Shown in pieces: positions 15,501 to 60,738 of a stretch of 64,000 bases of DNA. Within the stretch, counting starts at the first letter, position 1. Each line of letters begins with the position of its first letter. A program made the translations under genes and the position numbers. This stretch comes from a virus (lineage: Duplodnaviria > Caudoviricetes), in the IMG/VR virus record IMGVR_UViG_3300028048_000001, positions 64,001-128,000 of that record; one strand, given 5' to 3'. The notes under the pieces were generated by a model that was not told the DNA's origin, made no database searches, and saw nothing but the letters and a program-made list of their open reading frames with translations.

Positions 15501-18500
15501 TCTTCCTTTTCCTTATCGTTAGTTTCTTTATCAGATAAATCAGGAACCCATTTACCACCTCTATATTCTTCATTTTTTTCGGTGATAGGATTCTGTCTTT
15601 TATCTCCCTCTTTAGGTCCGGCATTTTCATTTGATTTATTTTCATTACTTGGAATATTAGTATTCTCTTTAGCTTTATCAAAAGAATTCTTTTCTGGTAA
15701 TTCAATACCATTGTGCTGAGCTATTGATTTTACTGTATCAAGAATAGTATTAAGTATACTATTTCTTTTAGCTCCCAAAGGATCAGTTTTTTCTGCGTCT
15801 TTAATAGTTTCAGCAATATTTTTATTTTCTTCTTTTAACCAATTTTTTCTATCATTAATATTTATTCTTCTATAATCATTATCGGTTTGATGCATTAATT
15901 TAAGTAATTTTTTATCACTTAATTTACCATTCAAACCTCTAATATCATAACCTTTATATTCATCTTTAGAAAATTCAGATTCTCTAACAGCATCCCAATT
16001 ATCTAATTGAACAGATCTTTCATTAAATTCAGCTTGTTTTTCTTTTAAAAGATTAATAGCTGATGTTGCTCTTTCACCTGTTATACCATATTCACCATTT
16101 TCAATAGCTTTTATTAATTTACTATAGTCTGTATGCTCTTTTTTGGGTCCAAAAGGCTTATTATTATTTCTAGTATAAGTAGTAGAATCTTTTATAGCTT
16201 TTCTAAGAGCATTTACTACTTTAGGATCGCTAGCTCCACCATTATCTAGTGTAGCAACCATAGTATCTGCTAAATCTTCTCTTTGAGATCTAAGAGCTTT
16301 TCTTGCACCATTTTCATTATTAGAATAGAAACGTATTTTTTGAATAAAATCATTTCTTTTTCTAATTCCTTCTTCACTATTATCTTTTTCCAATTCAGCA
16401 AGAGATTTATCATAAGATGTAGCATCAGATCCCATAGCTTTTACTCTCTCTGCTGCAGAAGCAGTAGAGTAACCCATTCTTATATTATGTTTATTAAGAG
16501 CTTCTCCAGCTCTACCCATTATATTGAATGGAACAGATATTAATCCCTTGCCAAATTTTAAAAGTTTATCTCCAGAGAATCCTAAAAGTGATAATAATCT
16601 ACCAAAAGTTTTATTAAATAATTCTCCAATATTTCTTCCAATACGAACTATTATATTTTTAGCCCCTTCAGTAACCCCTTCAAGTAGCCTAGTTCCTTTT
16701 CCTTTGACCCAATCAGTAAGAGGAACAAATAATTTTTTAACATTTTCACCAACAGTATTTTTTAAGAATTCACCAACTTTACCGATTCCGTTTTTAACAT
16801 AATCGGCCAATGGATCTACTACTCTAACTTTAAGAGAACCGATAATTCCGCCTCTTCTTTTACCATCGGCACCTTTATTACCAAATAAAGCTCCAGATAT
16901 ATATTCTTTTACAGTTTCATTATGGGCAAGCATATCAACACCTGCACCAAGCATAAATCCACCAAGAATTCCACCAGGAGCTAATCCCATAAGTCCAAGA
17001 GCTGTTCCTAAAGCTCCAGATTTAGCTATTGAAGGAACTCTCTTTTTAATAAATGTAGCAGCCTTAGCAGGAATTAACCCGCCAGACATGGTTTTTGTTC
17101 CATCAGAATTTGTACGTTCTTCGCCAAAAAGTTTTTTAGAAATATCATCAGAATTTTTTAATACATGAACTCCAGCACCAATAGCAAATCCACCAAGAAG
17201 TCCTAATCCAGAACCTGTCATGGCACCTGCAACAATAGCACCGATAGTACCAGATGATATAGTTTGAGGTAAAGACTTTTTGATTACATTCATTGCTGAT
17301 TTAGCAACGTCTTTAGTTCCTGTATATTTATCTCCGAAATAGTCAGACATAGCTTGATCAGCTTTAGACATCATATCTTTCATTTTCTGACCATAATCGG
17401 TTTCCATAATTTTTCCAGCAAAGCTTTTGGCACCATCTATAACTTTAGAACCTGTAGTTTTTACATTATCTACAGTTTCTCCTACAATATCTTGAACGTT
17501 TTTTGATTCTACATACCTTTTAACTGCATTATAGTTCTTTTTAATTCTTTTAGCAATAGTATTAGGATCTAATCCTTGTTCTAAAAGTTTATCAATATTA
17601 CTTTTATCTTTTTTAGATAATTTAGGTCTTTTAGATTTACCACCTTTACTAAAATTTCCCCAATAATCATCTGTATTTCCACCTCTAGCAACCCAATTTC
17701 TATAATTCATTGCTTCTTGGGCTCTTTGAGATGATTTATTGGTTCTTCCTTTGTAAAAAGGATTTTTCTCAGAAGGAATAATCATTTCACCTTCTGATAC
17801 AGAAATCATACCAGATTTGGTGACCATACCACCATTGGCAGCAGATCCACTGTAATTACCAGTAACCCAATCTACAACACTACCAGCAGATTTTTTAGCA
17901 TGTCCCCAAATAGATTTTCCAATTCCACTAACTTGATCTTTCATAGATCCAAAATAGGATCTACCAAAATCAGAAGATTTAAATTTTTCCCATTTATCTA
18001 AAGCCCAATTTTTAGCTTTATCTTTAATACTTTCTATTGCTTGAGCTATAGTACCAGGAAGATCTTTAAATAATTTTACTAATCCACCATTTGCAAAAAA
18101 TTCTTTAGCTTGACTTATCCCATTACCAAAGAATACCTTAGAAAGAAAATCATTTATTTTATCTACGCCTTTTGTAAATATAGACGATTTTTCATTTTCT
18201 TCTCGTCTTTCATCAAGTTTATTTGTTGATTTATATGGCGATTCTCTATATGTTCCATCTTTTTCTAATACATAAGTATCATCTTTAGCAGTATTTTCAT
18301 TATATATTTTATTTTTTATTGCTTGGTTTTCTCTTCTTCTTAATTCTTTAAGTTCTTTACTTAATGGAACATTATATTTTCTTCTAGCTTTATATCCTCT
18401 ATCTCCAGAGAAATTTTGACTAGATATACTGTCTTCTAAATACTTAAAAGAACTATAAAAGCTTTGTAAATACCAATAAATATCATGGCCTTTATCATCT

Positions 18501-34571: not shown

Positions 34572-34584
34572 ATTTTTTAATTAA

Positions 34585-34600
34585 ATATTATAATACTGAA
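34585..34600 (+). promoter_or_regulatory. Early-type phage promoter motif
   Basis: ATATTATAATACTGAA upstream of 34630. Confidence 0.65.
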
Positions 34601-41206: not shown

Positions 41207-41239
41207 TTTGAATGTAAAAGTAAATTCGTAATTAAATAA

Positions 41240-41255
41240 ATATTATAATTATGAA
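41240..41255 (+). promoter_or_regulatory. Early-type phage promoter motif
   Basis: ATATTATAATTATGAA upstream of 41350. Confidence 0.6.
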
Positions 41256-42996: not shown

Positions 42997-44969
42997 AAGA
43001 ATCAGAAAGAGTGAATATCCTTGAAAAAATATTATTTTCTGGAACTATAACTCCTATTGAATTTGAATGGGAGCAATTATCTCCAGATGTTAATATATAT
43101 CAATTATTAACACAAGAAGATATAGATTATATGAAAAATATAATTACTTCTCCGAGATATGCTGGAAATTCTAGACTTAGACTTTCTAAACTAGATGAAG
43201 TAATGAAATTTAGAAATTTTATAAAATTCGCTGGTGGGACTAATAGAATAGTATATACTCATCCCTCAGCACCAAATATGGTATTTAAAGTAGCAGTAGA
43301 TGCTGTAGGAATTAGAGATAATCCATCGGAATATTATAATCAAAAATTATTAAAACCGTTTTGTACTAAAGTATTCCAATGTTCTTCTTGTGGAACTATA
43401 GCTTCATTTCAAAAAGTTGATAGAATTACAAGTGAAGAAGAATTTTTTAGTATTATAGACGATTATCTTTCTCTATTAGAAGTTTTAATAGATGGAAAGC
43501 ATATATATGATGATATTGGAACTAAATATTTCATGAATTATGGTATATGGAAAGGAAAAGGATTAGTTATTCTAGATTTTCCATATATGTATGAAATAGA
43601 TGGTAAAAAATTAATATGTAAAAACATACTAGATGATGGATCTATATGTAACGGTGATATAGATTATGATAAAGGTTTTAATACAATAATTTGTACAAAA
43701 TGTGGAAGAATATATAGAGCAGGAGACCTTGCAAAAACACCAGAAAGTGGAAGTTCAATAACAAAAATGAAAGGAGCAGCAAGAATGAAATTTAGTCTTA
43801 AAAGAGGAGATAAAGTAATTAAAACTTTCGAGACAGGTAATGAGGTTGAATATATTGTAAGAAGAGAAAATAATATTGCTAAAAAGAATGAAAAAAATAG
43901 AATATACAACAATGAACTTATCAAAGTTAAGAAAGTTATTAAAACAAACAATGAAACCATTAATTCTGTAGAAATTCCTAAAAATAAAACCAATACTGAA
44001 TCTTCTACAAATGATAAAGATAGTAAAGAAGAATCAGTGAAAAAAGTAGTTAAAACAATAGGTGTTAATCTTAAAAAAGAAAAAGAAAATAAAAAATCTA
44101 TTAATGGAATTAATACAGAACTTATTAAAGTTAAAAAGAAAATTAAAACAGATTCTTTTAAGAAATATAAAGTAAAAACAATTAATAATAAAAAGAAAAA
44201 TATTCTTGAAGAAAAAACAGAAAAACCTAAAGAAAAAGATACAGTGATTGAAAGGATTATTAAAGTATCTTTAGATGGTAATATAGATAATACAACAAAA
44301 ATTAATACAGAAAAAGATAACACTGTTAAAAGTGGTGTAATCAAAGTTAATAAAACAATAGCAATTCCTGAATCTGAAATCAAAAGATTTAGTAATAAAC
44401 CTTCTTTAATTTCATCAGAGAATAAAGATAATTCTGTAGTTATTGAAGAAGAAAAACAGGAAATTATTAATAATTCTAAACCTACAGAAGAAATTAAAGA
44501 AGAACAAATAGAAAATTATAATGAATCTATACCAATTTCTACTAAATCAGAAGATCAGATCAATACTGAATCTACAGATATAGAAGATAAAGATATTAAT
44601 AATGATAATGATAATAAAGATTCCTCTAATAATTTTTATTATGTAAAGTTTTTAAATCATATTCCTGATAAATCTGAGATTGAAAATGATTATATATATG
44701 CTATATATAAAGGATCAGAAAATTTTAAAGATCATATAGAATATATAGAAGATATTATGACTATTGATAGAAATCTTTATGATATTTATGGATCATTTGA
44801 TAATAAACTGTATTTGATTGATAATAAATATGATGAAGATGGTAATCTTATTTTCTTAGTAGATGAAGATTATGAAGAAAATAATATTGATGATGAAAAA
44901 GATATTGATAATGATATCATAGAAAATATTAAAAAGTCTGGAAAACCTAGCATTAATGATATATTATAA
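42993..44969 (+). CDS. Ser/Thr kinase-like protein with Zn-ribbon and long disordered K-rich then acidic tail
   Basis: AGGTNRIVY (Gly loop), VFKVA, DNPSE, DDIG..MNYG (catalytic loop), LVILDF; then C..C..CTKCG. Confidence 0.7.
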   Translation: MKESERVNILEKILFSGTITPIEFEWEQLSPDVNIYQLLTQEDIDYMKNIITSPRYAGNSRLRLSKLDEVMKFRNFIKFAGGTNRIVYTHPSAPNMVFKVAVDAVGIRDNPSEYYNQKLLKPFCTKVFQCSSCGTIASFQKVDRITSEEEFFSIIDDYLSLLEVLIDGKHIYDDIGTKYFMNYGIWKGKGLVILDFPYMYEIDGKKLICKNILDDGSICNGDIDYDKGFNTIICTKCGRIYRAGDLAKTPESGSSITKMKGAARMKFSLKRGDKVIKTFETGNEVEYIVRRENNIAKKNEKNRIYNNELIKVKKVIKTNNETINSVEIPKNKTNTESSTNDKDSKEESVKKVVKTIGVNLKKEKENKKSINGINTELIKVKKKIKTDSFKKYKVKTINNKKKNILEEKTEKPKEKDTVIERIIKVSLDGNIDNTTKINTEKDNTVKSGVIKVNKTIAIPESEIKRFSNKPSLISSENKDNSVVIEEEKQEIINNSKPTEEIKEEQIENYNESIPISTKSEDQINTESTDIEDKDINNDNDNKDSSNNFYYVKFLNHIPDKSEIENDYIYAIYKGSENFKDHIEYIEDIMTIDRNLYDIYGSFDNKLYLIDNKYDEDGNLIFLVDEDYEENNIDDEKDIDNDIIENIKKSGKPSINDIL

Positions 44970-44975
44970 TAATGA
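44961..44975 (+). promoter_or_regulatory. Early-type phage promoter motif
   Basis: ATATTATAATAATGA overlapping the kinase stop codon, upstream of 44999. Confidence 0.5.
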
Positions 44976-47227: not shown

Positions 47228-48040
47228 ATGACTTCTAGTCTATGGAGAAATATAAATTATAAGACACCGATAAAATATTATATAAATACTTATATTAGAG
47301 AATATGATTTATCTAAAGCAAATATAAATGCTTTGTTATATCAAAAAAGAATATCTAAATCTGAATATGATAATTTCTATTCTATGGATAAAAAAGAAAG
47401 AGAAGTTATTATAGGAAAAATGATATCTAAAGATAGAACAATATATCAAGATATTCAATCTGGTATAAAAGAAGCAAAAAGAAAATTATTTTTAACAAAT
47501 AATATAGAAGATATAGATATTGTATCTATTAAAAATGATGCAGTATTTATAGTAGGAAAATATTTACAAAATACAGAATTTCCACCTTTTAATTTTGTAA
47601 TAAAAAATGAATATAATATATTTTTACAATTACAGGAATTAGAAATATATTATTCTGATTCTATAGATAATAGCGGATATAATATAAATATAGATGTAAA
47701 AGGGATTGGAGATAATAATTTATTATTACATCAAAATGGAATGTTAGATTTAATTTGTGAAGTTTGCAGAAAATTACAAAGAGAACCTGTAGAAGAAACA
47801 ATGAATTATGTTTCTGTTATGTATAATAAATTTATAAATAGAGAATTAAATAAAGAATATTATAGAAATTTTGATTCATTCTCTATGTATATAATTCCTA
47901 CTTTTATGCAGTTTATACAAGTTCCAGATATATCTGAAGATATGAAATATGCTGTAGATATAAATAGAAATTTAAGTATAATGAGAAATTTAGTAGGTAT
48001 AATATCAGATATTTATAGACAAAAAAGGAGAAGAGGATAA
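47228..48040 (+). CDS. Small family-B DNA polymerase palm-like protein (putative)
   Basis: IREYDLSKANINAL (motif A-like), IVSIKNDAVFIV (motif C-like) and IDVKGI. Confidence 0.45.
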   Translation: MTSSLWRNINYKTPIKYYINTYIREYDLSKANINALLYQKRISKSEYDNFYSMDKKEREVIIGKMISKDRTIYQDIQSGIKEAKRKLFLTNNIEDIDIVSIKNDAVFIVGKYLQNTEFPPFNFVIKNEYNIFLQLQELEIYYSDSIDNSGYNINIDVKGIGDNNLLLHQNGMLDLICEVCRKLQREPVEETMNYVSVMYNKFINRELNKEYYRNFDSFSMYIIPTFMQFIQVPDISEDMKYAVDINRNLSIMRNLVGIISDIYRQKRRRG

Positions 48041-48055
48041 TCCTCTTCTCTTTTT
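48021..48055 (+). terminator. Intrinsic terminator
   Basis: GAGAAGAGGA-TA-ATCCTCTTCTC-TTTTT region overlapping the stop codon. Confidence 0.75.
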
Positions 48056-48142: not shown

Positions 48143-49279
48143 ATGAATAATTTAAATCTTGATGTTGATATTAAAAGTTTTGATATTTCTCAAATTTCAC
48201 AAATTTATGTTGGAATTTCAAAAAAAATAGATGTATCTATATATGCTGATCCTAAGTTTGATAGTGATCAAATGCATCAAATTCGTCTTGGTTTAGAAGA
48301 TAAATTAGATATATCTATTTATGCTGATCCTAAGTTTAGATGTGATCAAATGCATCAAATTCGTCTTGGCTTGAAAAATGGATTAAATGTTTCTATTTAT
48401 GCTGATCCTAAATTTGATGCTTATCAAATGAGTCAAATTTATATTGGTTTGAAAGATAGATTAGATGCATCTATATATGCTGATTCTGAATTTAAATACT
48501 TTCAAATGGATGAAATCCGTCTTGGTTTAAAAGATGGATTGGACGTTTCTATTTATGCTGATCCTAAATTTGACTGTTCTCAAATGCATCAAATATATCT
48601 TGGTTTAAAAGATGAATTGAATGTATCTATTTATGCTGATCCTAAATTTGACTTCTTTCAAATGAATGAAATCCGTCTTGGTTTAAAAGATGGATTAGAC
48701 GTTTCTATTTATGCTGATCCTAAATTTGACTGTTCTCAAATGCATCAAATATATCTTGGTTTAAAAGATGAATTGAATGTATCTATTTATGCTGATCCTA
48801 AATTTGACTTCTTTCAAATGAATGAAATCCGTCTTGGTTTAAAAGATGGATTAGATATATCTACCTATGCTGATCCTAAGTTTGATTGGGAACAGATGGA
48901 TGAAATTCGTATTGGATTAGAGGATAGATTAGATGCATCTATTTATGCTGATCCTAAATTTAATAATTATCAAATGAGTCAAATTCGTCTTGGTTTAAAA
49001 CATGGATTAGATGTATCTATTTATGCTGATCCTAAATTTAGTGACGATCAAATGAATGAAATCCGTCTTGGTTTAAAAGATGGATTAGATATATCTACCT
49101 ATGCTGATCCTAAGTTTGATTGGGAACAGATGGATGAAATTCGTCTTGGTTTGAAAGATGGATTAGATGTATCTATTTATGCTGATCCTGAATTTAGCAG
49201 TCTTAAAATGAATCAAATCCGTCTTGATTTGAAAGAAGGATTGTATATATCTATATATACTGATCCTAAATTTAATTAA
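48143..49279 (+). CDS. 26-aa tandem repeat protein 1 (14 repeats)
   Basis: Repeat xxxQMxxIxxGLKDGLDVSIYADPKF; AAGGAGG RBS; early-type promoter. Confidence 0.9.
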   Translation: MNNLNLDVDIKSFDISQISQIYVGISKKIDVSIYADPKFDSDQMHQIRLGLEDKLDISIYADPKFRCDQMHQIRLGLKNGLNVSIYADPKFDAYQMSQIYIGLKDRLDASIYADSEFKYFQMDEIRLGLKDGLDVSIYADPKFDCSQMHQIYLGLKDELNVSIYADPKFDFFQMNEIRLGLKDGLDVSIYADPKFDCSQMHQIYLGLKDELNVSIYADPKFDFFQMNEIRLGLKDGLDISTYADPKFDWEQMDEIRIGLEDRLDASIYADPKFNNYQMSQIRLGLKHGLDVSIYADPKFSDDQMNEIRLGLKDGLDISTYADPKFDWEQMDEIRLGLKDGLDVSIYADPEFSSLKMNQIRLDLKEGLYISIYTDPKFN

Positions 49280-49311
49280 AAAATAAAGATATTTAAATTA
49301 AAATTATAGAT

Positions 49312-49343
49312 AAAGAAAATAGGGATTAATCCCTATTTTCTTT
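49312..49343 (+). terminator. Intrinsic terminator (identical copy at 50500-50531)
   Basis: AAAGAAAATAGGGATTAATCCCTATTTTCTTT palindrome plus T-tract. Confidence 0.85.
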
Positions 49344-49359
49344 TTTATTTTTTAATTAA

Positions 49360-49376
49360 TAATTATAATAATAGAA
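49360..49376 (+). promoter_or_regulatory. Variant early-type promoter motif
   Basis: TAATTATAATAATAGAA upstream of repeat gene 2. Confidence 0.45.
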
Positions 49377-49426
49377 TAGAAGATAGATAATAATTTTATT
49401 TACAATTTTATAAAATGGAGGAAAAT

Positions 49427-50458
49427 ATGAATAATTTAAATCTTAATATTGGACTTTTTAGTTTGAGTCAGATAGAAGTGATTTATCGTGGTCTTGAAGA
49501 AGGATTAGATGTATCTATATATGCTGATCCTAAGTTTGATAATGATCAGATGGAAATAATTCGTTATGGACTTAAAGATGGATTAGATGTATCTATATAT
49601 GCTGATCCTAAATTTAACTGGGAACAGATGGATGAAATCCGTCTTGGTTTAAAAGATGGATTAGATACATCTATTTATACAAATCCTAAGTTTGATTGGG
49701 ATCAGATGGAAACAATTTATCGTGGACTTAAAGATGGATTAGATGTATCGATCTATGCTGATCCTAAATTTGACTGCTCTCAAATGTATCAAATTCGTCT
49801 TGGATTAGAAGATAAATTAGATGTATCTATTTATGCTGATCCTAAGTTTGATAGTTATCAAATGAGTCAAATTCGTTTTGGTTTGAAAGATAAATTAGAT
49901 GTATCTATCTATGCTGATCCTGAATTTAAATACTTTCAAATGGATGAAATTCGTCTTGGTTTAAAAGATGGATTAGATGTATCTATTTATGCTGATCCTA
50001 AATTTAGTGGTATTAAAATGTATCAAATCCGTCTTGGGTTAGAAGATGGATTAGACGTATCTATTTATGCTGATCCCAAGTTTGATTGGGAACAGATGGA
50101 TGAAATTCATCTTGGTTTGAAAGATGGGGTAGATGTATCTATCTATGCTGATCCTGAATTTAATTGGGAACAGATGGATGAAATCCGTCTTGGATTAGAG
50201 GATGGATTAGATGTATCTGTTTATGCTAATCCTAAGTTTAATAATGATCAAATGGAAATAATTCGTTATGGTCTTAAAGATAGATTGGACGTATCTATAT
50301 ATATTGATACTAAGTTTAATTATAGTCAGATGAGAGAAATTTATCGTGGCCTTAGAGATGGATTAGACGTATCTATTTATGCTAATCCTAAGTTTGATAG
50401 TAATCAAATGGAAATAATTCGTTATGGTCTTGAAAGTAGATATTTATGGTGTTTCTAA
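49427..50458 (+). CDS. 26-aa tandem repeat protein 2 (13 repeats, last partial)
   Basis: Same repeat; start reassigned to the ATG at 49427 behind GGAGG. Confidence 0.9.
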   Translation: MNNLNLNIGLFSLSQIEVIYRGLEEGLDVSIYADPKFDNDQMEIIRYGLKDGLDVSIYADPKFNWEQMDEIRLGLKDGLDTSIYTNPKFDWDQMETIYRGLKDGLDVSIYADPKFDCSQMYQIRLGLEDKLDVSIYADPKFDSYQMSQIRFGLKDKLDVSIYADPEFKYFQMDEIRLGLKDGLDVSIYADPKFSGIKMYQIRLGLEDGLDVSIYADPKFDWEQMDEIHLGLKDGVDVSIYADPEFNWEQMDEIRLGLEDGLDVSVYANPKFNNDQMEIIRYGLKDRLDVSIYIDTKFNYSQMREIYRGLRDGLDVSIYANPKFDSNQMEIIRYGLESRYLWCF

Positions 50459-50499
50459 GTTTAATTGAAAAACAAATACATTTAAATTGAAATGTAGAT

Positions 50500-50531
50500 A
50501 AAGAAAATAGGGATTAATCCCTATTTTCTTT
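50500..50531 (+). terminator. Intrinsic terminator (duplicate of 49312-49343)
   Basis: Identical 32-bp palindrome plus T-tract. Confidence 0.85.
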
Positions 50532-50546
50532 TTTATTTTTAATTAT

Positions 50547-50562
50547 ATATTATAATATTGAA
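50547..50562 (+). promoter_or_regulatory. Early-type phage promoter motif
   Basis: ATATTATAATATTGAA upstream of repeat gene 3. Confidence 0.65.
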
Positions 50563-50602
50563 ATAAAAGATAAATAATAATTTTATAAAATGGAGGAAAA
50601 AT

Positions 50603-51316
50603 ATGAATGATTTAAATCTTAATATTGGACTTTTTAGTTTGAGTCAGATAGAAGTAATTTATCGTGGTCTTGAAGAAGGATTAGATGTATCTATATACGC
50701 TAATCCTAAGTTTGATGTTTTTCAAATGGGAGCAATTTATCGTGGACTTAAAGATGGATTAGATGTATCGATCTATGCTGATCCTAAATTTGACTGCTCT
50801 CAAATGTATCAAATTCGTCTTGGATTAGAAGATAAATTAGATGTATCGATCTATGCTGATCCTAAGTTTGATAGTTATCAAATGAGTCAAATTCGTTATG
50901 GTCTTAAAGATGGATTAGATGTATCTATATACGCTGATCCTAAGTTTGATAGTGATCAAATGGAAATAATTCGTTATGGTCTTAAAGATAAATTGGATGT
51001 ATCTATCTATGCCGATCCTAAGTTTGATTGGGAACAGATGGATGAAATTCGTCTTGGATTAAAGGATGGATTGGATACATCTATTTATACTGATCCTAAG
51101 TTTGATTGGGATCAGATGGAAATAATTCGTTATGGTCTTAAAGATGAATTAGATGTATCTGCTTATGCTAATCCCAAATTTAACTGGGAACAGATGGATG
51201 AAATCCGTCTTGGTCTAAAAGATGGATTAGATGTATCTGTTTATGCTAATCCTAAGTTTGATAATGATCAGATGAAAATAATTCGCTATGGCATTAAAGG
51301 TAAATATTTACGGTGA
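50603..51316 (+). CDS. 26-aa tandem repeat protein 3 (9 repeats, last partial)
   Basis: Same repeat; N-terminus nearly identical to protein 2. Confidence 0.9.
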   Translation: MNDLNLNIGLFSLSQIEVIYRGLEEGLDVSIYANPKFDVFQMGAIYRGLKDGLDVSIYADPKFDCSQMYQIRLGLEDKLDVSIYADPKFDSYQMSQIRYGLKDGLDVSIYADPKFDSDQMEIIRYGLKDKLDVSIYADPKFDWEQMDEIRLGLKDGLDTSIYTDPKFDWDQMEIIRYGLKDELDVSAYANPKFNWEQMDEIRLGLKDGLDVSVYANPKFDNDQMKIIRYGIKGKYLR

Positions 51317-51472
51317 TTCTAAGTTTGATAGTGATCAAATGAATATAATCCGTAGTAGTTTTGATAGATGATTAAATGCATATGTGTATCTTAAGTTTGA
51401 TTAATTGAAAAACAAATACATTTAAATTCTATTTTTAATTAGATAATTTAAAATTAAAGGAGGATATAAATT

Positions 51473-52285
51473 ATGAATAATATGTATAATGGATATACTT
51501 TTAATTCTATTAAAATGAACGAAATTCGTTTTGGCTTAAAAGATGGATTAGACGTATCTATATATGCTGATCCTAAGTTTGATTGGGAGCAGATGCGTGA
51601 AATTCGTATTGGCCTTAGAGATAGATTAGATGTATCTATTTATGCTGATCCTAAATTTAATTGGAAACAGATGCGTGAAATTCGTATTGGCCTTAGAGAT
51701 AGATTAGATGTATCTATTTATGCTGATCCTAAATTTAGTGGTATTAAAATGTATCAAATTCGTCTTGGTTTGAAAGATGGATTAGATGTATTTATTTATG
51801 CTAATCCTAAGTTTGATTGGGAACAGATGGATGAAATCCGTCTTGGTTTGAAAGATGGATTGGACGTTTCTATCTATGCTTATCCTGAATTTAATGATTA
51901 TCAAATGGGTCAAATTCGTCTTGATTTAAAAGATGGATTAGATGTATCTATTTATGCTAATCCTAAGTTTGACTTCTTTCAAATACGTGAAATTCGTCTT
52001 GGTTTGAAAGAAGGATTAGACGTATCTATCTATGCCAATCCTGAATTTAGTATTTATCAAATGTATCAAATCCGTCTTGGATTAGAGGATGGATTGGATG
52101 TATCTGTTTATGCTGATCCTAAATTTAATGATTGTCAAATGCATCAAATCCGTCTTGGTTTAAAAGATGGATTGGATGTATCTATCTATGCTGATCCTAA
52201 GTTTAGCAGTGATAAAATGCATCAAATTCGTCTTGGCTTAAAAGATGGAGTGGATGTATCTATTTATAAGGAGGATAAATTATGA
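51473..52285 (+). CDS. 26-aa tandem repeat protein 4 (10 repeats)
   Basis: Same repeat; AAGGAGG RBS. Confidence 0.9.
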   Translation: MNNMYNGYTFNSIKMNEIRFGLKDGLDVSIYADPKFDWEQMREIRIGLRDRLDVSIYADPKFNWKQMREIRIGLRDRLDVSIYADPKFSGIKMYQIRLGLKDGLDVFIYANPKFDWEQMDEIRLGLKDGLDVSIYAYPEFNDYQMGQIRLDLKDGLDVSIYANPKFDFFQIREIRLGLKEGLDVSIYANPEFSIYQMYQIRLGLEDGLDVSVYADPKFNDCQMHQIRLGLKDGLDVSIYADPKFSSDKMHQIRLGLKDGVDVSIYKEDKL

Positions 52286-52842
52286 ATAATATGTATAATG
52301 GATATGCTTTTAATTCTGATGAAATGGATGAAATTCATATTGGGTTAGAAAAAGGATTAGACGTATCTATATATGCTAATCCTGAATTTAATGATTATCA
52401 AATGCATCAAATTCGTCTTGGGTTAGAGGATAGATTGGATGTATCTGTTTATGCTGATCCTAAGTTTGACTTCTTTCAAATGGATGAAATTCGTCTTGGT
52501 TTAAAAGATGGATTAGACGTATCTATTTATGCTAATCCTAAATTTAACGATTATCAGATGTATGAAATCCGTCTTGGTTTGAAAGATAAATTGGATATAT
52601 CTATCTATGCTGATCCTAAATTTAGTGATTATCAAATGGATGAAATTCGTATTGGTTTAAAAGATGGATTAGATGCATCTATTTATGCTGATCCTAAATT
52701 TAACTGGTCTCAAATGCGTCAAATTCGTTTTGGCTTAAAAGATGGATTAGACGTATCTATTTATGCTGATCCTAAGTTTAGATGTGATAAAATGTATCAA
52801 ATTCGTCTTAGTTTAAAAGATGGATTAGATGTATCTATCTAA
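52282..52842 (+). CDS. 26-aa tandem repeat protein 5 (7 repeats)
   Basis: Same repeat; ATGA overlap with protein 4 and a shared MNNMYNGYxFNS start. Confidence 0.9.
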   Translation: MNNMYNGYAFNSDEMDEIHIGLEKGLDVSIYANPEFNDYQMHQIRLGLEDRLDVSVYADPKFDFFQMDEIRLGLKDGLDVSIYANPKFNDYQMYEIRLGLKDKLDISIYADPKFSDYQMDEIRIGLKDGLDASIYADPKFNWSQMRQIRFGLKDGLDVSIYADPKFRCDKMYQIRLSLKDGLDVSI

Positions 52843-52923: not shown

Positions 52924-52955
52924 AAAAGCTGTGAGAATTAATTCTCACAGCTTTT
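52924..52955. terminator. Bidirectional terminator
   Basis: AAAAGCTGTGAGAAT-TA-ATTCTCACAGCTTTT between convergent genes. Confidence 0.85.
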
Positions 52956-52960
52956 ATTTT

Positions 52961-53440
52961 TTAAAATGTATTAATATTTCTTAATCCAAAATTAGCGTTA
53001 TCAATATCTCCATTTTGCTTAATAGAATAATTTAATACTTCTAATTTAGCTCTATTTTTTATACTTTCTAACATCTCTTCTTCTGTTTCGAATGGATATC
53101 CAACTGATAATCGTAATTTAATACTATCAGTCATTTCTAACATTATTTTTTTCATAATATATTGAATAGAATTTTCTATATTTTGTTCATTCATATAATT
53201 TTCGCTATTTGGATCTATATTATAAATTTGCCATTCTAATAATGCTTGATTTACTAAATAGTCCATTAAATCTCTAGAATCTTTTATTGAATAATTACTT
53301 TTCTGAATAAAAACGTCTCTATCTCTGATAATTTCTGAGATGCTTTTTATAGTTTTTTGGTAATAAGTTAATTTTATAAAAACAATTATTGATATAAATA
53401 TAAAAAACAATAATAAAATTAATATAATAATTAAATTCAT
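52961..53440 (-). CDS. Membrane-anchored hypothetical protein
   Basis: N-terminal TM helix; AGGAG RBS. Confidence 0.6.
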   Translation of the reverse strand: MNLIIILILLLFFIFISIIVFIKLTYYQKTIKSISEIIRDRDVFIQKSNYSIKDSRDLMDYLVNQALLEWQIYNIDPNSENYMNEQNIENSIQYIMKKIMLEMTDSIKLRLSVGYPFETEEEMLESIKNRAKLEVLNYSIKQNGDIDNANFGLRNINTF

Positions 53441-53510
53441 ATTAAATCTCCTGTTGTAAAAGTTTTAAAGGATGTAATGAATAGGGGTGTATGATGCACC
53501 CCTTATTTTT

Positions 53511-54302
53511 TTATACCATTCCATTTATATATCCAAACGAATAATCAATTAAATTATTAGAATTGATATAATTGCTGTTATAATAATTAAATTCATTATA
53601 ATCTCCCCATGATTTTATAGTATCGGAAAGTTGATAATATTGTAAATCTGTAAGTTCATTATTTTTTTGGCAATTATTTATATATTTTATTACTTTATTA
53701 GCTATATCCATTGTAATACCATAACTATATTTTCTTAATAATTCTACCCAATTTCCAAAACACATACTGATAGGAATATACATATCAGGATTAGCATGAT
53801 ATATTTGATGTGCTGTTTCTGATAGCATTACAATAGGAATATGATTTTCTCTATGTTCTTGTATCAATAGATTTATAATATCAAAAGTTGTACATCTTCC
53901 TACTGTATTTAATATGTGTTGAGATATTAATATTGTGATATCATATATCGTTAAAAAATTATGATGCATTTCGATATCCGCCATTCCGTCTTGAATATTT
54001 CCTAGTATTTGACATCTATCTAATCCCATACTCATTAAATAAGCTTTATATCCTTTATATGCTCTAGATTTTCTAAATCTATGTATACAATTATCTATAA
54101 ACCTTTTATAGGTATCAACATCTGCTAATGTTTCTCTTGTTTGATAAAATTGTAATGGATATGGAGATATATTAAAATATATACTAGCTATTGGAGTATT
54201 TGGATTTATAAATTCTCTTGCCAAATAAATATCTATATCATTTTTATCAGCAATTTTTGTATTAGATAATTCTGTAAATTGATTTTCTATTAAATTATTC
54301 AT
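53511..54302 (-). CDS. His-rich HNH-like conserved phage protein; paralog of 32086-32919
   Basis: Shared motifs described for 32086-32919; late-type promoter at 54323-54336. Confidence 0.55.
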   Translation of the reverse strand: MNNLIENQFTELSNTKIADKNDIDIYLAREFINPNTPIASIYFNISPYPLQFYQTRETLADVDTYKRFIDNCIHRFRKSRAYKGYKAYLMSMGLDRCQILGNIQDGMADIEMHHNFLTIYDITILISQHILNTVGRCTTFDIINLLIQEHRENHIPIVMLSETAHQIYHANPDMYIPISMCFGNWVELLRKYSYGITMDIANKVIKYINNCQKNNELTDLQYYQLSDTIKSWGDYNEFNYYNSNYINSNNLIDYSFGYINGMV

Positions 54303-54397: not shown

Positions 54398-55120
54398 ATG
54401 CCAAAATATAGATCAAAAAATTTTACAGATGCTGATATTAATAATATTATTAATTTATATGAATTAGGATATTCTATTCAGCAAATTAGAGATATTACAA
54501 AAATTGCTAAAGATGTAATAAAAAAATATCTTGTTATTAAATTTGATAATGAAATTCCTATAACTCTTGATGAAAAATCATATTTTAGAAAAACTTATAA
54601 AGCTGGAAAATCTATTACAGAGATTTCTCATATAACAGGAAGAAATTGTTCTGTTATTAGAAGATATATTAAAGATCTTATAACTGATAAAGAAAAAGAA
54701 GAAAAATGCAAAGAAAATGAATCAATATTAAAAAAGAAAGCAAATAAAAATTCTGAAGATATTATTAATATATATTTAAATTCTTCATATGAAATATCAG
54801 ATATCGCTAAATATTATAATACGTCTAATGATTCAATTAGAAAAGTTATTAAATCTTGGGTCGATAAATATACTACATATGATAAAATATTTGAAAAACC
54901 GATTAATATTATAAAAGAAAAAATATTTAAAGATTTTTATTGTAATATAGGAGATAAATATGAAGTAATAGTACATACTTTTGAAGACGGAAACAAATTA
55001 TCTGTTGCTACAATAAAAGAATTATATCCAAAAATTGTTATGACAGATAAAGGAAGTTTTTCTTATAGAGATATAATATTAAATTCTAAATTAATATCTA
55101 GAAATATTAAAAATAATTGA
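54398..55120 (+). CDS. Triple helix-turn-helix protein with small C-terminal domain
   Basis: GYSIQQIRDITKIAKDVIKKYL, GKSITEISHITGRNCSVIRRYI and YEISDIAKYYNTSNDSIRKVI. Confidence 0.7.
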   Translation: MPKYRSKNFTDADINNIINLYELGYSIQQIRDITKIAKDVIKKYLVIKFDNEIPITLDEKSYFRKTYKAGKSITEISHITGRNCSVIRRYIKDLITDKEKEEKCKENESILKKKANKNSEDIINIYLNSSYEISDIAKYYNTSNDSIRKVIKSWVDKYTTYDKIFEKPINIIKEKIFKDFYCNIGDKYEVIVHTFEDGNKLSVATIKELYPKIVMTDKGSFSYRDIILNSKLISRNIKNN

Positions 55121-55153: not shown

Positions 55154-58100
55154 ATGGAAAAAGTAACTTTATCCAGTAAAGTATTTACTGAAAATCCATT
55201 ACTAGATGAAATAATATACAATATTAGACAATTAGCTATTGGAACAATATTAAAAGATCAAGATAAAGCTGATAATAATGAAACATTAGAATCTATTAAA
55301 GCTGGAGATGTTCTTATTAGTCTTAATAGAGGTCATTATAATTTTAATTTCTTTTATTATGATGAAACTTTATTAAGACAGATATCTGGATTAACAGAAG
55401 AAGAAATTATAGAATATTCTGCTGATAATAGTAAAATTCCTGAAAGTATAAGAAAACCGTTATTTAATATGGCATCAGAAACATTTTTAAATAATTATGT
55501 TGAATATAATAATTATTATAGAATGCTTCATGGTGAACCGGATTATGATGAAACTGGTGTATGGCAAGGACTTTGGATAGACGATAATTATATAGATGAA
55601 GAAATTCCAACATCATTAGATCATATATCTATTGCTTATAAAGAGGAATACGATAATAATGGTAATCTTATATCAAATTATAAATTAATTCATGAATTAT
55701 CTTTAGCTAAACAGATTATTCTTGATTCTAATGGTACATTGGATAATATAATAGAAAATGAAACATGGCTAACAGCTAATAATTTAGAAAGAGATAATGT
55801 ATTATATCTCTTTCATATGGGTGATAAACAAATAGAATATTATGATGCAAGAACAGCAGAAAAATTTGCTATGTTATATTGCCCATCTTGTGATTCTGAA
55901 GAAGTAAGAATAAGATATAAAGATTTATTAGAAGCTAATAGATTGTATTTATTATATACAGTATATTCTACAGCTTATAAATATAGATCTGATTATTATG
56001 ATAATTTTATGATGGTGTTTTTAATCATACAAACGATTATAGATATGATCGTAGAATTACCAGAATATTTAATAAGAAGAGATATATTTGATACAAGAAC
56101 AGCTAGATATATTTTTGAATCAAATGGTGTTAAATATTTTAAGGATATACCATTAAGATATCAAATAGCTCTTGTAAAAAATCTTAATAAATTGATTAAA
56201 TTTAAATCTACAGATAAATGTATTGTTGATATAATATCATTGTTTGGATTTAGAAATATTAATGCTTTTAAATATTATATTTTGAAAGATAGAAATGTAA
56301 ATAATCCAGACAATTTGGATTATTATGATAATACAAAAATTGTAACAGATGAAGAAGGAAATAGAGATATTGTTCCTGATAATGATACAAACTATGATGT
56401 TAAATTTATTAAAGTTCCATTATTAGATCCGATATATGATAATTATGCAAAAAAAGATCAAAATATATTAGAATATGATGAAATAACATTACCAGATGCA
56501 TATTGGACTGGAGACAAGCAATATGAAACAGTAAAATCTGGAGTTAAAGATCTTGATTTTACTGTACTTAGGTCTAAATATTATACAATAGAGGCTGTTA
56601 TAGATTTAGCAGAAAGAAATTTTTCTCTTGTATATTTTATGAATATTCTGATGTATAATAAAATAGATAAATCTTCTCTTAGAATAAATTTACCTAATAT
56701 TTCTACTACCAAAAAAGTAGAATTAGTAAATGCTATTTTAGCATTATATTCTCTTGGGTATATTTATTATGGGATAGAAGATACTATAATGGATAGTAGA
56801 TCTAAAATAGCAGAAATATTAGGATTTAATATGGAAGCAGATTTTGCAGCTATTGCTCAATATTTGCATGATAATCATAGAGGATTAACTTTAGAAGAAT
56901 TGTGTTATGGACATGATGCTGTAGAAAGACCAGGATTTACAGTACCTAGTGATGATAAAATTTATAGTTTTGAAGAGCTTAGAGCTATTTTCTTAAATAA
57001 TAGAGATATATATAAACATGTAATAGAAGTAATGCAAAATCCACCTAGCAAAGAAATATACAATGCTTATAGATATTTATATAAGACATTATTCATCATG
57101 GATATGAATCTTGAATATTTCCTTGTAGGGGATAATGATATTGTAGATGAATACAAATCTAATGGATATACAACCAGATTTATCAATATTCCAAAACCAG
57201 AAAATTATCAAAATCCAGATGTTTATGAATATGATATGAAATGTCTTACAAGTACTTGTAATGAAAATACTCTTTATTTTGAAATGAGTGATAATTTTAA
57301 TGATACTCATGAATTTAATCTGTATACTTATAATCCAGAAAATGAAGAGTTTATCTCATTAAATGCTACTGCTAAAATGGCTAGCACATATACAGAATAT
57401 ATGAGATATAATGATGGTAATGTATATAAATTTCTTGTACAAGTTGCTTCTATAGATGATGAAGAAAAAAGGCAAGAAACTTGTGTCAATGCTATTCAAC
57501 AGATTATTGGATATATTAAAGATTATGTAGATGAAGATAAAACTGAAGTTTATATGGATGATGTATTTTCTGGTTTACCATCTGTTTCGTTAGAATTTGT
57601 TAAATCTTATATAGAAGAGGTAATAGATTTCTTCAAATCCTTTAAGATATTTACTCATGAATCTTCTATTATGTATGTAATAGATGATAAGTTTGATCAA
57701 TATGTTCAATTAATAGATCATATTTTACTTAAATATTTATTTGATAAAGCTGAAATTATTAAAATTGAAGATTTTATTTCAAATTCTAAAGTAAATATTA
57801 CAGAAAAAGAACGAGCCGATCTTATAGATAAAGTATGGTTTAGTATGGATTGGTGGATAAGAAAAAATTATTCTGAATATTATGAGAATAATAGAAATGC
57901 TTTAGAGGAAAATACAAGGCATGAATTTGTATATTATTGTCCTCAGTGTGGAACTAAATTAAATTCTAATGATACAGTATGTCCTCAATGTGGGACAGAA
58001 AATAAAGTTCCTATTATATTTGATAATTATGCTTCATTTAATAAAGCAATAAGAGAGTGGATAGATAGAAGGACAACTTTTGAATTATATGATGAAATGT

Positions 58101-58615
58101 TTAATCCAGAAAATCATTATATCAAAGAACTTGAAATTTATGCAGTAGATGCTATTTTACATATGCTAGTAGATATGTATGAGTATAATCAGATTAATAT
58201 TAACGATACTATAGGAAAAATGAGTGTTACAAAATATCTTACTGAATATATTAATGAATGGATAACAGATATTGCATATGTATTTCTTAAATTAGAACTT
58301 CATGATGGAGAAATACATTGCTCTAAATATTTCTGTCCTCATTGTGGAAAAGAGATAGAATATAATACTATAACTTGTCCATATTGTGGAAAAACAATAT
58401 TAGAACCAGATTCTAAGTATCACTATATAAGTCATATTAAAGATACGTTAAGCAAATCTGCTAGACTTAATTTAAATTATGCAATTAATTTTAGAGAAAG
58501 TATTAATAATTTCAATCAAACTATGAGTTTATATGAACAACCATATAGACTTTTTGATAATTATTATGCAATTATAACTCAAGAATTTCCACCACATGAA
58601 TTTATAGATGCTTAA
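55154..58615 (+). CDS. Large virion structural (baseplate-associated) protein with two double-zinc-ribbon inserts
   Basis: 1153 aa; YVEYNNYYRMLHG; LIKFKSTDKCIVDIISLFG (baseplate wedge-like); CPQCG..CPQCG and CPHCG..CPYCG; late-type promoter. Confidence 0.6.
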   Translation: MEKVTLSSKVFTENPLLDEIIYNIRQLAIGTILKDQDKADNNETLESIKAGDVLISLNRGHYNFNFFYYDETLLRQISGLTEEEIIEYSADNSKIPESIRKPLFNMASETFLNNYVEYNNYYRMLHGEPDYDETGVWQGLWIDDNYIDEEIPTSLDHISIAYKEEYDNNGNLISNYKLIHELSLAKQIILDSNGTLDNIIENETWLTANNLERDNVLYLFHMGDKQIEYYDARTAEKFAMLYCPSCDSEEVRIRYKDLLEANRLYLLYTVYSTAYKYRSDYYDNFMMVFLIIQTIIDMIVELPEYLIRRDIFDTRTARYIFESNGVKYFKDIPLRYQIALVKNLNKLIKFKSTDKCIVDIISLFGFRNINAFKYYILKDRNVNNPDNLDYYDNTKIVTDEEGNRDIVPDNDTNYDVKFIKVPLLDPIYDNYAKKDQNILEYDEITLPDAYWTGDKQYETVKSGVKDLDFTVLRSKYYTIEAVIDLAERNFSLVYFMNILMYNKIDKSSLRINLPNISTTKKVELVNAILALYSLGYIYYGIEDTIMDSRSKIAEILGFNMEADFAAIAQYLHDNHRGLTLEELCYGHDAVERPGFTVPSDDKIYSFEELRAIFLNNRDIYKHVIEVMQNPPSKEIYNAYRYLYKTLFIMDMNLEYFLVGDNDIVDEYKSNGYTTRFINIPKPENYQNPDVYEYDMKCLTSTCNENTLYFEMSDNFNDTHEFNLYTYNPENEEFISLNATAKMASTYTEYMRYNDGNVYKFLVQVASIDDEEKRQETCVNAIQQIIGYIKDYVDEDKTEVYMDDVFSGLPSVSLEFVKSYIEEVIDFFKSFKIFTHESSIMYVIDDKFDQYVQLIDHILLKYLFDKAEIIKIEDFISNSKVNITEKERADLIDKVWFSMDWWIRKNYSEYYENNRNALEENTRHEFVYYCPQCGTKLNSNDTVCPQCGTENKVPIIFDNYASFNKAIREWIDRRTTFELYDEMFNPENHYIKELEIYAVDAILHMLVDMYEYNQININDTIGKMSVTKYLTEYINEWITDIAYVFLKLELHDGEIHCSKYFCPHCGKEIEYNTITCPYCGKTILEPDSKYHYISHIKDTLSKSARLNLNYAINFRESINNFNQTMSLYEQPYRLFDNYYAIITQEFPPHEFIDA

Positions 58616-59490: not shown

Positions 59491-59508
59491 TATTAGGAGG
59501 TGGATATA

Positions 59509-60738
59509 ATGGCTAAAAGAGTATCGAAAAAAATTACTAATAGTGAATTAAGAGATACTTTAATTAATATAGAAGAGAAAAATATAACTGCTTCATTTAT
59601 ATATGATTTATTTGGTGAATTTGATGGGGTTGCAAAATGCAACCCCTATGACACTATAGACATTCCACCAAATAAATATGGACCAGATAAAAAGAAAAAT
59701 AAAAATAGCTTTACCACTACAGTAGGTTTGTGGATTTTTAATAAATGGATAATAGAACCAGATTTATTTAATATATTTGGATATATAAATAAAACTATTG
59801 ATGGAAAACAACTTGATCATATGAATCAAGAATTATCATATGCTTTAATGGAAGACAGAATTGAAGTTGAAGCTTTAAAAAGATATTTAATGAAAACTCA
59901 ATTAGCTATGCAATTTGTTACTATATTAGCTCCTAATTATAATGAATCTATTTTAACAATAACAAAAACCATAGATAAAAGAAAAGAAGAATTAATTAAA
60001 AAATATAAAAAAGAATTAGATTCTGGTGACACTGTAATAGCTAAACAAATCGAAGATGAATTAATTGATTATGCTTTGAAAGTTCTTGAAGATGATCCAT
60101 CATTAGATACTTTCTTATCTGGAGCTAGAAGCAATATAAATAATAATTTTAAAAATTTATTTATTTGGAAAGGGGCTACTAGAGATCCTAATCCAGATTC
60201 TAAACAAGAATTTAGAATAGCTACATCGAATTATACGGATGGTATTAAAAGAGAAGAATATGGATTATATTCTAACTCTGGTATTGAAGGAGCATATTCT
60301 CGTGGTAAGAAAACAGAACATGGAGGATATCTGGAAAATCTAGCTACTTCAGCTTATCAAGATATTATTCTTGACGAACCAGGTACTGATTGTGGTACTA
60401 ATAGATATATTGAAGATGTAATTACTGAAAAGAATTTAAATAGATATATTTATAATAATATTATAGGTCCTAATGGTAAATTAATAGAATTAAATTCACA
60501 AAATGCTAAAAAATATTTTGGGAAAAAAGTAAAAATGAGAATGGCATTTCTTTGCCCTCATGAAAAGCCATGCAATGCTTGTGCTGGTAATTTCTATTAT
60601 AAATTAGGAATAAAGAATGTAGGACTTACTCTAATGCAAGTATTCTCTATATATAAAAATAAAACGATGAAAGCTTTCCATGATAGTACTGTTCAATTAA
60701 TTGAAATAGACACTATGAAAGCTTTCGGATTAAAGTAA
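59509..60738 (+). CDS. Phage RNA polymerase beta'-like fragment (funnel, bridge helix, Zn site, first trigger helix)
   Basis: TTVG, SGARS, NYTDGI..EY, GAYSR..TEHGGYL, DCGT, CPHEKPCNACAG, NVG and TMKAFH; ATG at 59509 behind AGGAGGTG. Confidence 0.85.
   Translation: MAKRVSKKITNSELRDTLINIEEKNITASFIYDLFGEFDGVAKCNPYDTIDIPPNKYGPDKKKNKNSFTTTVGLWIFNKWIIEPDLFNIFGYINKTIDGKQLDHMNQELSYALMEDRIEVEALKRYLMKTQLAMQFVTILAPNYNESILTITKTIDKRKEELIKKYKKELDSGDTVIAKQIEDELIDYALKVLEDDPSLDTFLSGARSNINNNFKNLFIWKGATRDPNPDSKQEFRIATSNYTDGIKREEYGLYSNSGIEGAYSRGKKTEHGGYLENLATSAYQDIILDEPGTDCGTNRYIEDVITEKNLNRYIYNNIIGPNGKLIELNSQNAKKYFGKKVKMRMAFLCPHEKPCNACAGNFYYKLGIKNVGLTLMQVFSIYKNKTMKAFHDSTVQLIEIDTMKAFGLK

Follow-up and report, generated by a model that had tools for sequence, protein, structure and literature searches.

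The LRV protein of Azotobacter vinelandii (PDB 1LRV) is composed of repeats of about 24 residues, each contributing one alpha helix and one short 3-10 helix, which together form a superhelix. Among the proteins of mobile DNA, polyvalent proteins carry two to fifteen different conflict-related domains in a single polypeptide (Iyer, Burroughs, Anand, de Souza and Aravind 2017, PMC5512222), and the leading regions of plasmids contain long co-directional blocks of small genes, with an SSB and ArdC-like make-up, that constitute anti-defence islands (Samuel et al. 2024, PMC11541004). Here we analysed a 64,000-nucleotide stretch of phage DNA (hereafter the window), corresponding to bases 64001-128000 of IMGVR_UViG_3300028048_000001, a viral record of 274,241 bp that is complete and has direct terminal repeats, with a GC content of 26.6%. 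At positions 48143-52842 the window contains an array of five adjacent genes whose products are made of a 26-residue repeat. They are stand-alone representatives of a large family of 26-residue repeats that so far has no name, and we see about an even chance that their products are early-expressed, acidic, cytoplasmic solenoid binders or decoys for host takeover or counter-defence.

The five open reading frames (ORFs) of the array are located on the plus strand and consist only of the 26-residue unit, with no insertions or deletions. A motif scan gave 14, 13, 9, 10 and 7 units for genes 1 to 5, respectively, the same counts proposed in a first-pass annotation of this DNA, with all spacings being exactly 26 residues; 50 of the units are complete, and the 3 truncated ones are located at gene ends. 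At the DNA level, Tandem Repeats Finder detected a 78-nt period with 51 copies and 69% matches. The copies in the array are only 60-91% identical when compared over 300 nt, which makes an assembly artefact unlikely. The repeat genes are confined to the array, with no other copy in the phage genome.

Analysis of the per-column entropy of the 50 complete units revealed that I8 and Y21 are invariant and that Q4, M5, G11, L12, L16, D17, S19, P24 and F26 are nearly so. The variable set comprises positions 2, 3, 6, 10 and 13, with entropies of 2.8-3.2 bits at positions 2, 3 and 6, and the triplet formed by positions 1-3 appears in 29 distinct versions, in agreement with the nearly invariant scaffold and the more than 25 triplet states perceived at first reading. 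Positions 6-7 and 9-10 had also been listed as variable, and the helix face termed hypervariable. Positions 6 and 10 are indeed variable, whereas position 9 is mostly a conserved arginine (78% in the phage and 74% across the family). Position 2, occupied by W in about one quarter of the units across the family, is better termed semi-conserved than hypervariable. An identical pattern of scaffold and variable positions was found in 1,380 units from 233 relatives, indicating that it corresponds to ordinary solenoid surface variation and not to a hypervariability specific to this locus. The phage proteins display the features that define the family, that is, tandem 26-residue units with conserved Q4, M5, I8, G11, L12, D17, Y21 and F/Y26 (family consensus QM..IR.GL..G.DVS.YA.P.F). 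As had been described from the letters, all five proteins are acidic, with pI values of 4.3-5.0 and net charges of -8 to -31 (-0.8 to -2.4 per unit), and no hydrophobic N-terminus or membrane segment was found in the translations of the five ORFs.

The protein encoded by gene 3 was modelled with AlphaFold2 from a 103-sequence alignment, resulting in an alpha-solenoid with a predicted local distance difference test score (pLDDT) of 96.4 and a predicted template-modelling score (pTM) of 0.88. Each modelled unit consists of a 12-residue alpha helix (positions 2-13), a loop, a 3-residue helical turn (positions 18-20) and a second loop. On a helical wheel, the entropy moment was 0.66 for the phage units and 0.72 for the family; positions 2, 3, 6, 10 and 13 fell within 60 degrees of the variable pole, I8 was placed at 180 degrees from it, and Q4, M5, G11 and L12 were at least 120 degrees off. 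These angles indicate that the variable residues occupy one helix face, opposite the conserved hydrophobic face, as expected from the proposal of a solenoid with variable residues on one side of the helix. Residues M5, I8, L12, L16, V18, Y21 and F26 would make up the core of the solenoid, and the units would stack into a continuous rod in which residues 2, 3, 6, 10 and 13 give an exposed stripe that differs from unit to unit.

Searches in Pfam, NCBIfam and annotated PHROG revealed no family matching the repeat. Matches to Pfam Poly_export, Asp_DH_C, Organ_specific and FtsX_ECD, as well as those to NCBIfam and PHROG entries, were discarded as artefacts of summed repeats, with 0-1 stretch passing and pieces of 15-60 residues. 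Sequence searches of the PDB, either with the protein or with a three-unit profile, gave only matches at E >= 0.1. A Foldseek search with the model against the PDB gave no match at E <= 0.001, the best one having an E value of 0.07, with template-modelling (TM) scores of at most 0.34. An exhaustive structural aligner (VIA) reached Z scores of at most 8.5, to designed helical repeats, and PPR, TALE/BurrH and 1LRV gave Z scores of 6.3-7.5 with a root-mean-square deviation (rmsd) above 10 A, the range expected of unrelated helical repeats. The statement that the repeat belongs to no characterised family was thus upheld in Pfam, NCBIfam, PHROG and the PDB. On the other hand, structures that the ESM Atlas predicts for unnamed clusters from phages and bacteria matched the model at TM scores of 0.85-0.94, and Foldseek against BFVD matched only two phage proteins, both uncharacterised.

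The suspicion that similar repeats exist in unannotated Firmicutes and phage proteins proved correct, with a family size of 2,918 protein clusters (50% identity) at E <= 1e-3 and 1,473 at E <= 1e-10. Relatives reach E values of 1e-231, with 35-65% identity and full-length similarity. A contig profile search with a single protein gave 6 loci, its patterns being over-specific. The repeat was present in 9 of 299 sampled genomes from the phylum of one carrier, a patchy spread as expected of mobile DNA. In-frame TGA codons were observed within repeat matches in four of the sampled genomes (G071, G122, G175 and G208), each of 0.6-1.3 Mb, which suggests that the family is also found in Mollicutes-type bacteria reading TGA as tryptophan; a 780-residue protein of Mycoplasmopsis caviae was among the best repeat matches. 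Full-text literature searches, and word searches of PMC5512222 and PMC11541004, gave no description of this repeat.

Domain partners were surveyed in the 120 best longer relatives. About two dozen of these are polyvalent-type proteins, in this case of Firmicutes conjugative elements, with partners such as ArdC-N plus MPTase zincin, LPD25, LPD1, LPD18, DUF3846/3849, CHC2 primase, Toprim, RadC, YodL and PBECR4. One example is a 1,415-residue protein with ArdC-N, MPTase, LPD25 and 19 repeat units, encoded between PrgI-like and VirB4-like genes in a Gram-positive type IV secretion/conjugation operon. The fused form is also represented by an LPD1 protein of Enterococcus cecorum. Stand-alone genes were found in comparable surroundings. 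In an Erysipelotrichaceae genome (25.8% GC), four tandem stand-alone repeat genes are bordered by an orphan C5 cytosine methylase and a PBECR4 nuclease on one side and by the VirB4/VirD4 ATPases on the other; judged by its GC content and by an identity of 53-65% to the phage proteins, this lineage is a candidate for the host group. Conjugative-element DNA of the same genome harbours several loci with stand-alone repeat genes in tandem (L015 4644-6431, L017/L020). Plasmid pFMC of Finegoldia magna ATCC 29328 showed repeat matches at 37 places, and its region 14837-45517 is a 30-kb co-directional block of small genes that includes at least 8 stand-alone repeat genes, SSB, DpnD/PcfM, an ArdC-like zincin and two TnpB genes; all the pFMC repeat genes are annotated as hypothetical. 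The motif was also detected in twelve further viral contigs, one of them with three tandem genes. The stand-alone and polyvalent forms are tied to DNA entry and establishment, though the module is a general one, and invading DNA of Firmicutes-type bacteria is its main user, whether as a long arm of polyvalent proteins, as tandem small genes beside conjugation and anti-restriction genes, or as phage accessory genes. The initial framing of the array as a phage-encoded binder library is too narrow for a repeat that is widespread among the polyvalent proteins that conjugative elements encode, in plasmid genes and in chromosomal DUF342/FapA proteins.

The array occupies a variable slot whose upstream flank gene is 80-92% identical in three related viral contigs. 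In the closest relative (L011, 92% flank identity), the slot contains one 382-residue repeat gene, with other variable residues, and two unrelated genes. The two relatives with 80% flank identity carry three unrelated small genes in the slot, and in one of them, a complete genome of 287,868 bp, no repeat gene was found anywhere. This difference in slot content between relatives (5, 1 or 0 repeat genes) indicates that the array is accessory and recent, and it agrees with the notion that related phages do not share identical arrays. A 190-residue slot protein encoded beside the single repeat gene of L011 (1792-2364) showed weak matches to sigma-70 region 4 and to helix-hairpin-helix motifs. The features of the array and of its borders, in window coordinates, are the following:

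47228..48040, plus strand: conserved gene of 270 aa that flanks the slot on its left, upstream side; phrog_21037, function unknown
48023..48055, plus strand: terminator-like hairpin before gene 1, also present ahead of the lone repeat gene of L011
48090..48103, plus strand: early-promoter-like motif ATATTATAATAATG, exact, ending 40 nt 5' of the gene 1 start
48143..49279, plus strand: repeat gene 1, 378 aa, 14 units, pI 4.5
49312..49343, plus strand: terminator-like hairpin 3' of gene 1, identical to the one 3' of gene 2
49415..50458, plus strand: repeat gene 2, 347 aa, 13 units with the last one frameshifted, pI 4.3; degenerate promoter-like box upstream
50500..50531, plus strand: terminator-like hairpin 3' of gene 2
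50547..50560, plus strand: early-promoter-like motif with 1 mismatch, ending 43 nt 5' of the gene 3 start
50603..51316, plus strand: repeat gene 3, 237 aa, 9 units, the last with the same frameshift as in gene 2; protein used for folding
51291..51401, plus strand: decayed out-of-frame repeat remnant, from the final 26 nt of gene 3 into the spacer; profile match at E 9.5e-5, internal stop
51473..52285, plus strand: repeat gene 4, 270 aa, 10 units
52282..52842, plus strand: repeat gene 5, 186 aa, 7 units; start codon sharing bases with the stop of gene 4 (ATGA), own stop inside the last repeat
52924..52955, no strand assigned: bidirectional terminator-like hairpin closing the array
52961..54302, minus strand: downstream flank genes, 159 aa and 263 aa, phrog_12252; right border of the slot, with orthologues in the related contigs L009 and L011

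The phage is distantly AR9/PBS1-like, as judged from a homologue of a virion structural protein and from a jumbo-phage RNA polymerase beta subunit. In AR9, the consensus of early promoters is AAATATATATTAT-N6-G (PMC5312081). The boxes located upstream of genes 1 and 3 match this consensus at 11/13 and 12/13 positions, respectively, plus the G. The version of the motif in this phage, ATATTATAATAATG, was found at 45 genomic sites with at most 1 mismatch versus 5.6 in shuffled sequences, an 8-fold excess. When the genome was scanned with the AR9 consensus, 41 of 81 matches were located in non-coding DNA, which makes up 9% of the genome, the intergenic ones typically about 40-50 nt 5' of a start codon. 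Genes 1 to 3 are each preceded by a near-identical cassette consisting of hairpin, promoter-like box and GGAGG, and terminator-like hairpins delimit three units (gene 1; gene 2; genes 3-5), two of which begin with an AR9-type early-promoter-like motif. No terminator was found between genes 3 and 4, which probably form one transcript for this reason. Judging from the motif, early expression of the repeat genes is likely. Outside the window, minus-strand matches to the AR9 consensus predominate; further motif sites were observed within it, for instance at 41234-41253, 44955-44974 and 34579-34598.

The ratio of non-synonymous to synonymous differences (pN/pS) was determined in 17 independent pairs of closely related units. 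Scaffold codons gave a value of 0.16, indicating purifying selection and hence real proteins. The variable codons gave 1.05, with a bootstrap interval of 0.57-2.43, so that neither the excess of non-synonymous change anticipated at these positions nor positive selection is demonstrated. Values of 1.7-2.1 obtained for the variable positions in an all-against-all comparison were set aside as non-independent and partly saturated. Units are common to several genes, in differing order, with a DNA identity of 77-100% between nearest neighbours; the array arose by duplication of whole expression cassettes together with exchange of repeat modules.

According to the reading that we favour, the five proteins would function, shortly after infection and in the cytoplasm of the host, as acidic, rod-shaped binders or decoys. 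Their variable, aromatic-rich faces may hold host proteins, the leading candidates being defence or DNA-handling proteins, with each paralogue offering a different surface. A role in establishment or counter-defence is suggested by association, through the polyvalent proteins in which relatives of the repeat are found (PMC5512222) and through the leading-region anti-defence islands (PMC11541004). Several observations weigh against this interpretation. Genes 2 and 3 end in a frameshifted unit and gene 5 stops prematurely, which may mean that part of the copies are in decay. The presumed surface exposure of the variable stripe is derived from helical periodicity, and early expression from the motif only, whose copy before gene 2 is degenerate. 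The binder or decoy role is argued from context, and no member of the family has an established target, binding activity or phenotype. The largest single group among the longer relatives, 73 of the 120, corresponds to chromosomal DUF342/FapA proteins of Lachnospiraceae in which the repeat is an N-terminal arm; one Butyrivibrio DUF342 fusion is chromosomal and adjoins a chemotaxis receptor. This dominance of DUF342/FapA indicates a general-purpose module, not one for counter-defence as such. Furthermore, the approximately neutral rate at the variable positions is compatible with lack of constraint as well as with diversifying selection, or with a mix of diversifying and purifying selection. Altogether, the structural inference made in the first-pass annotation was largely borne out, its library framing proved too restricted, and its expectations on selection stay unproven.

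A broader version of the binder interpretation is advanced here tentatively, as a possibility that we regard as doubtful. The repeat would be a natural programmable protein-recognition scaffold used by the invading DNA of Firmicutes-type bacteria, with the stripe setting specificity. On entry, the small sets of paralogues kept by phages and conjugative elements, or the long arms of their polyvalent proteins, would serve to disable proteins of host defence or housekeeping, a different one each; the five phage genes would make up a set of this kind, with module shuffling as the source of its diversity.

The rival that we rate highest, although we consider it unlikely, sees the repeat as a generic rigid spacer or scaffold, a rod that is cheap and easily lengthened, that has no specific partner and whose variable face is unconstrained, the five genes being a recent, partly decaying amplification of little consequence. 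A pN/pS ratio close to 1 at the variable positions is what such a spacer would show; the frameshifted and truncated gene ends and the decayed remnant, the modules common to several genes, as unequal recombination would give, the absence of the genes from the complete relative and the very different domain contexts of the repeat all point in the same direction. However, there would be little point in a spacer that forms a protein by itself, and tandem stand-alone genes nevertheless recur in unrelated elements. In addition, each unit of the array retains its promoter-like box, ribosome-binding site and terminator, and W, F, Y and C abound at the variable positions, an unusual composition for an unconstrained surface.

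A role as DNA mimics seems to us rather improbable. Like ArdA and Ocr, the acidic solenoid would in this case imitate the phosphate pattern of double-stranded DNA and thereby titrate restriction enzymes or other defence proteins that bind DNA, and its variable face would be incidental. The acidity of the five proteins, in which acidic residues predominate at positions 1, 14, 17 and 23, and the elongated rod shape of the model would suit such a function, and relatives are fused to or adjoin ArdC-type anti-restriction modules and an orphan methylase. On the contrary, the mean net charge across the family is only -1.4 per unit (sd 2.1), with many units neutral or basic and D17 as the only conserved acid; no sequence relation to ArdA or Ocr was found, and the DUF342 fusions are a poor fit to an anti-restriction role. 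This proposal overlaps with the favoured binder or decoy interpretation, since a protein that lures DNA-binding proteins by its acidity is also a kind of binder.

The proteins might instead be packaged in the virion and ejected with the DNA, a solenoid with one helix per unit being perhaps easy to unfold for passage through the tail. This is very unlikely in our opinion: relatives of the repeat are parts of polyvalent proteins thought to travel with DNA (PMC5512222), and virion structural protein homologues are encoded nearby, but the promoter-like motif is of early and not late type, the slot is accessory and empty in the complete relative, and no match to known structural families was obtained. 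Finally, that the variable codons, few per unit, are rewritten by a dedicated hypermutation system is extremely improbable, given that no reverse transcriptase (RVT_1) was found in the complete 274-kb genome by a search that was positive in control genomes, which excludes a diversity-generating retroelement, and that the variation lies between paralogous units, is common to the whole family and is not limited to one base type.

Regarding the phage itself, a megablast search with 20 kb against cultured phages gave no match. The window stretch was found in part in bovine-gut metagenome runs from 14 studies, a result that serves as a basis for habitat only. Several neighbouring genes were identified in the window. 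Just outside the slot, 54398-55120 (plus strand) encodes a 240-residue protein with a match to resolvase-type HTH_7 and more HTH-like matches, conserved in related phages. It is followed at 55154-58615 (plus strand) by a gene for a 1,153-residue zinc-ribbon protein related to the AR9/PBS1 virion structural protein and to Fusobacterium phages JD-Fnp, and at 59500-60738 (plus strand) by a gene for an RNA polymerase beta-like subunit of the jumbo-phage multisubunit type (phrog_2962, E 1.3e-59). On the minus strand, 9536-20293 is a single ORF of 3,585 residues with C39-like peptidase, phage tail lysozyme and CHAP matches in its C-terminal third; its giant product is probably a tail or ejection protein that carries cell-wall hydrolases.

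The repeat is common and is confidently predicted to form a solenoid with no solved relative, and it is missing from Pfam, NCBIfam, annotated PHROG and the PDB. A name for it would fill a gap that recurs in the annotation of polyvalent proteins, of plasmid establishment regions and of phage early regions. If the variable face sets specificity, the family would provide a new natural binder scaffold and a handle for tracing the host proteins at which counter-defence is aimed in gut anaerobes that have been little studied; should it be no more than a spacer, the array would still illustrate cleanly how cassettes are duplicated and modules shuffled in an accessory slot of a jumbo phage.

In comparison with known solenoid proteins, the phage repeat shares with ankyrin/DARPin, TALE/BurrH and PPR proteins the principle of a fixed scaffold with few specificity positions, and there is a weak structural resemblance to them (Foldseek E 0.07-0.6, VIA Z 6.3-7.5). 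Their unit, however, has 33-35 residues and two helices, in contrast with the 26 residues and one long helix of the phage unit; no Pfam or sequence match to ankyrin, TPR, PPR, HEAT or TALE was found, TM scores were below 0.35 and rmsd values above 10 A. In the VIA comparison with repeats of these families, Z scores of 6-7.5 went with rmsd values above 12 A. The acidity of the phage proteins argues against nucleic-acid binding of the TALE/PPR type. The LRV protein, which ranks among the better structural matches, is alike in layout, with one long and one short helix per stacked unit as in the phage model, but the alignment (Z 6.7, 179 residues, rmsd 10.4 A) is within the range of unrelated helical repeats, the rmsd indicates a different curvature, and no match to Pfam LRV (PF01816) was obtained even at E <= 1. 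ArdA and Ocr resemble the phage proteins in being small, acidic, elongated and early-made proteins of invading DNA, early expression being likely for the phage proteins, and relatives of the repeat sit with anti-restriction modules; they differ in that there is no homology and in that the acidity of the repeat is moderate and not conserved across the family.

As for the genomic setting, the repeat genes of pFMC lie in a block like those of the leading-region islands, and this part of pFMC may be a leading region; a word search of PMC11541004 found no mention of such repeats. The five phage proteins differ from the polyvalent proteins in containing the repeat only and no further domain, no Pfam LPD model matches the repeat, and a word search of PMC5512222 gave no passage on it. 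Nevertheless, homologous arrays, with up to 59% identity to gene 3, are present in the same polypeptides as ArdC-N, MPTase, LPD1, LPD18, LPD25, primase, RadC, YodL and PBECR4, and relatives are set among conjugation and establishment genes. The repeat is, in these terms, a new type inside the known class of alpha-solenoid binding modules of mobile elements.

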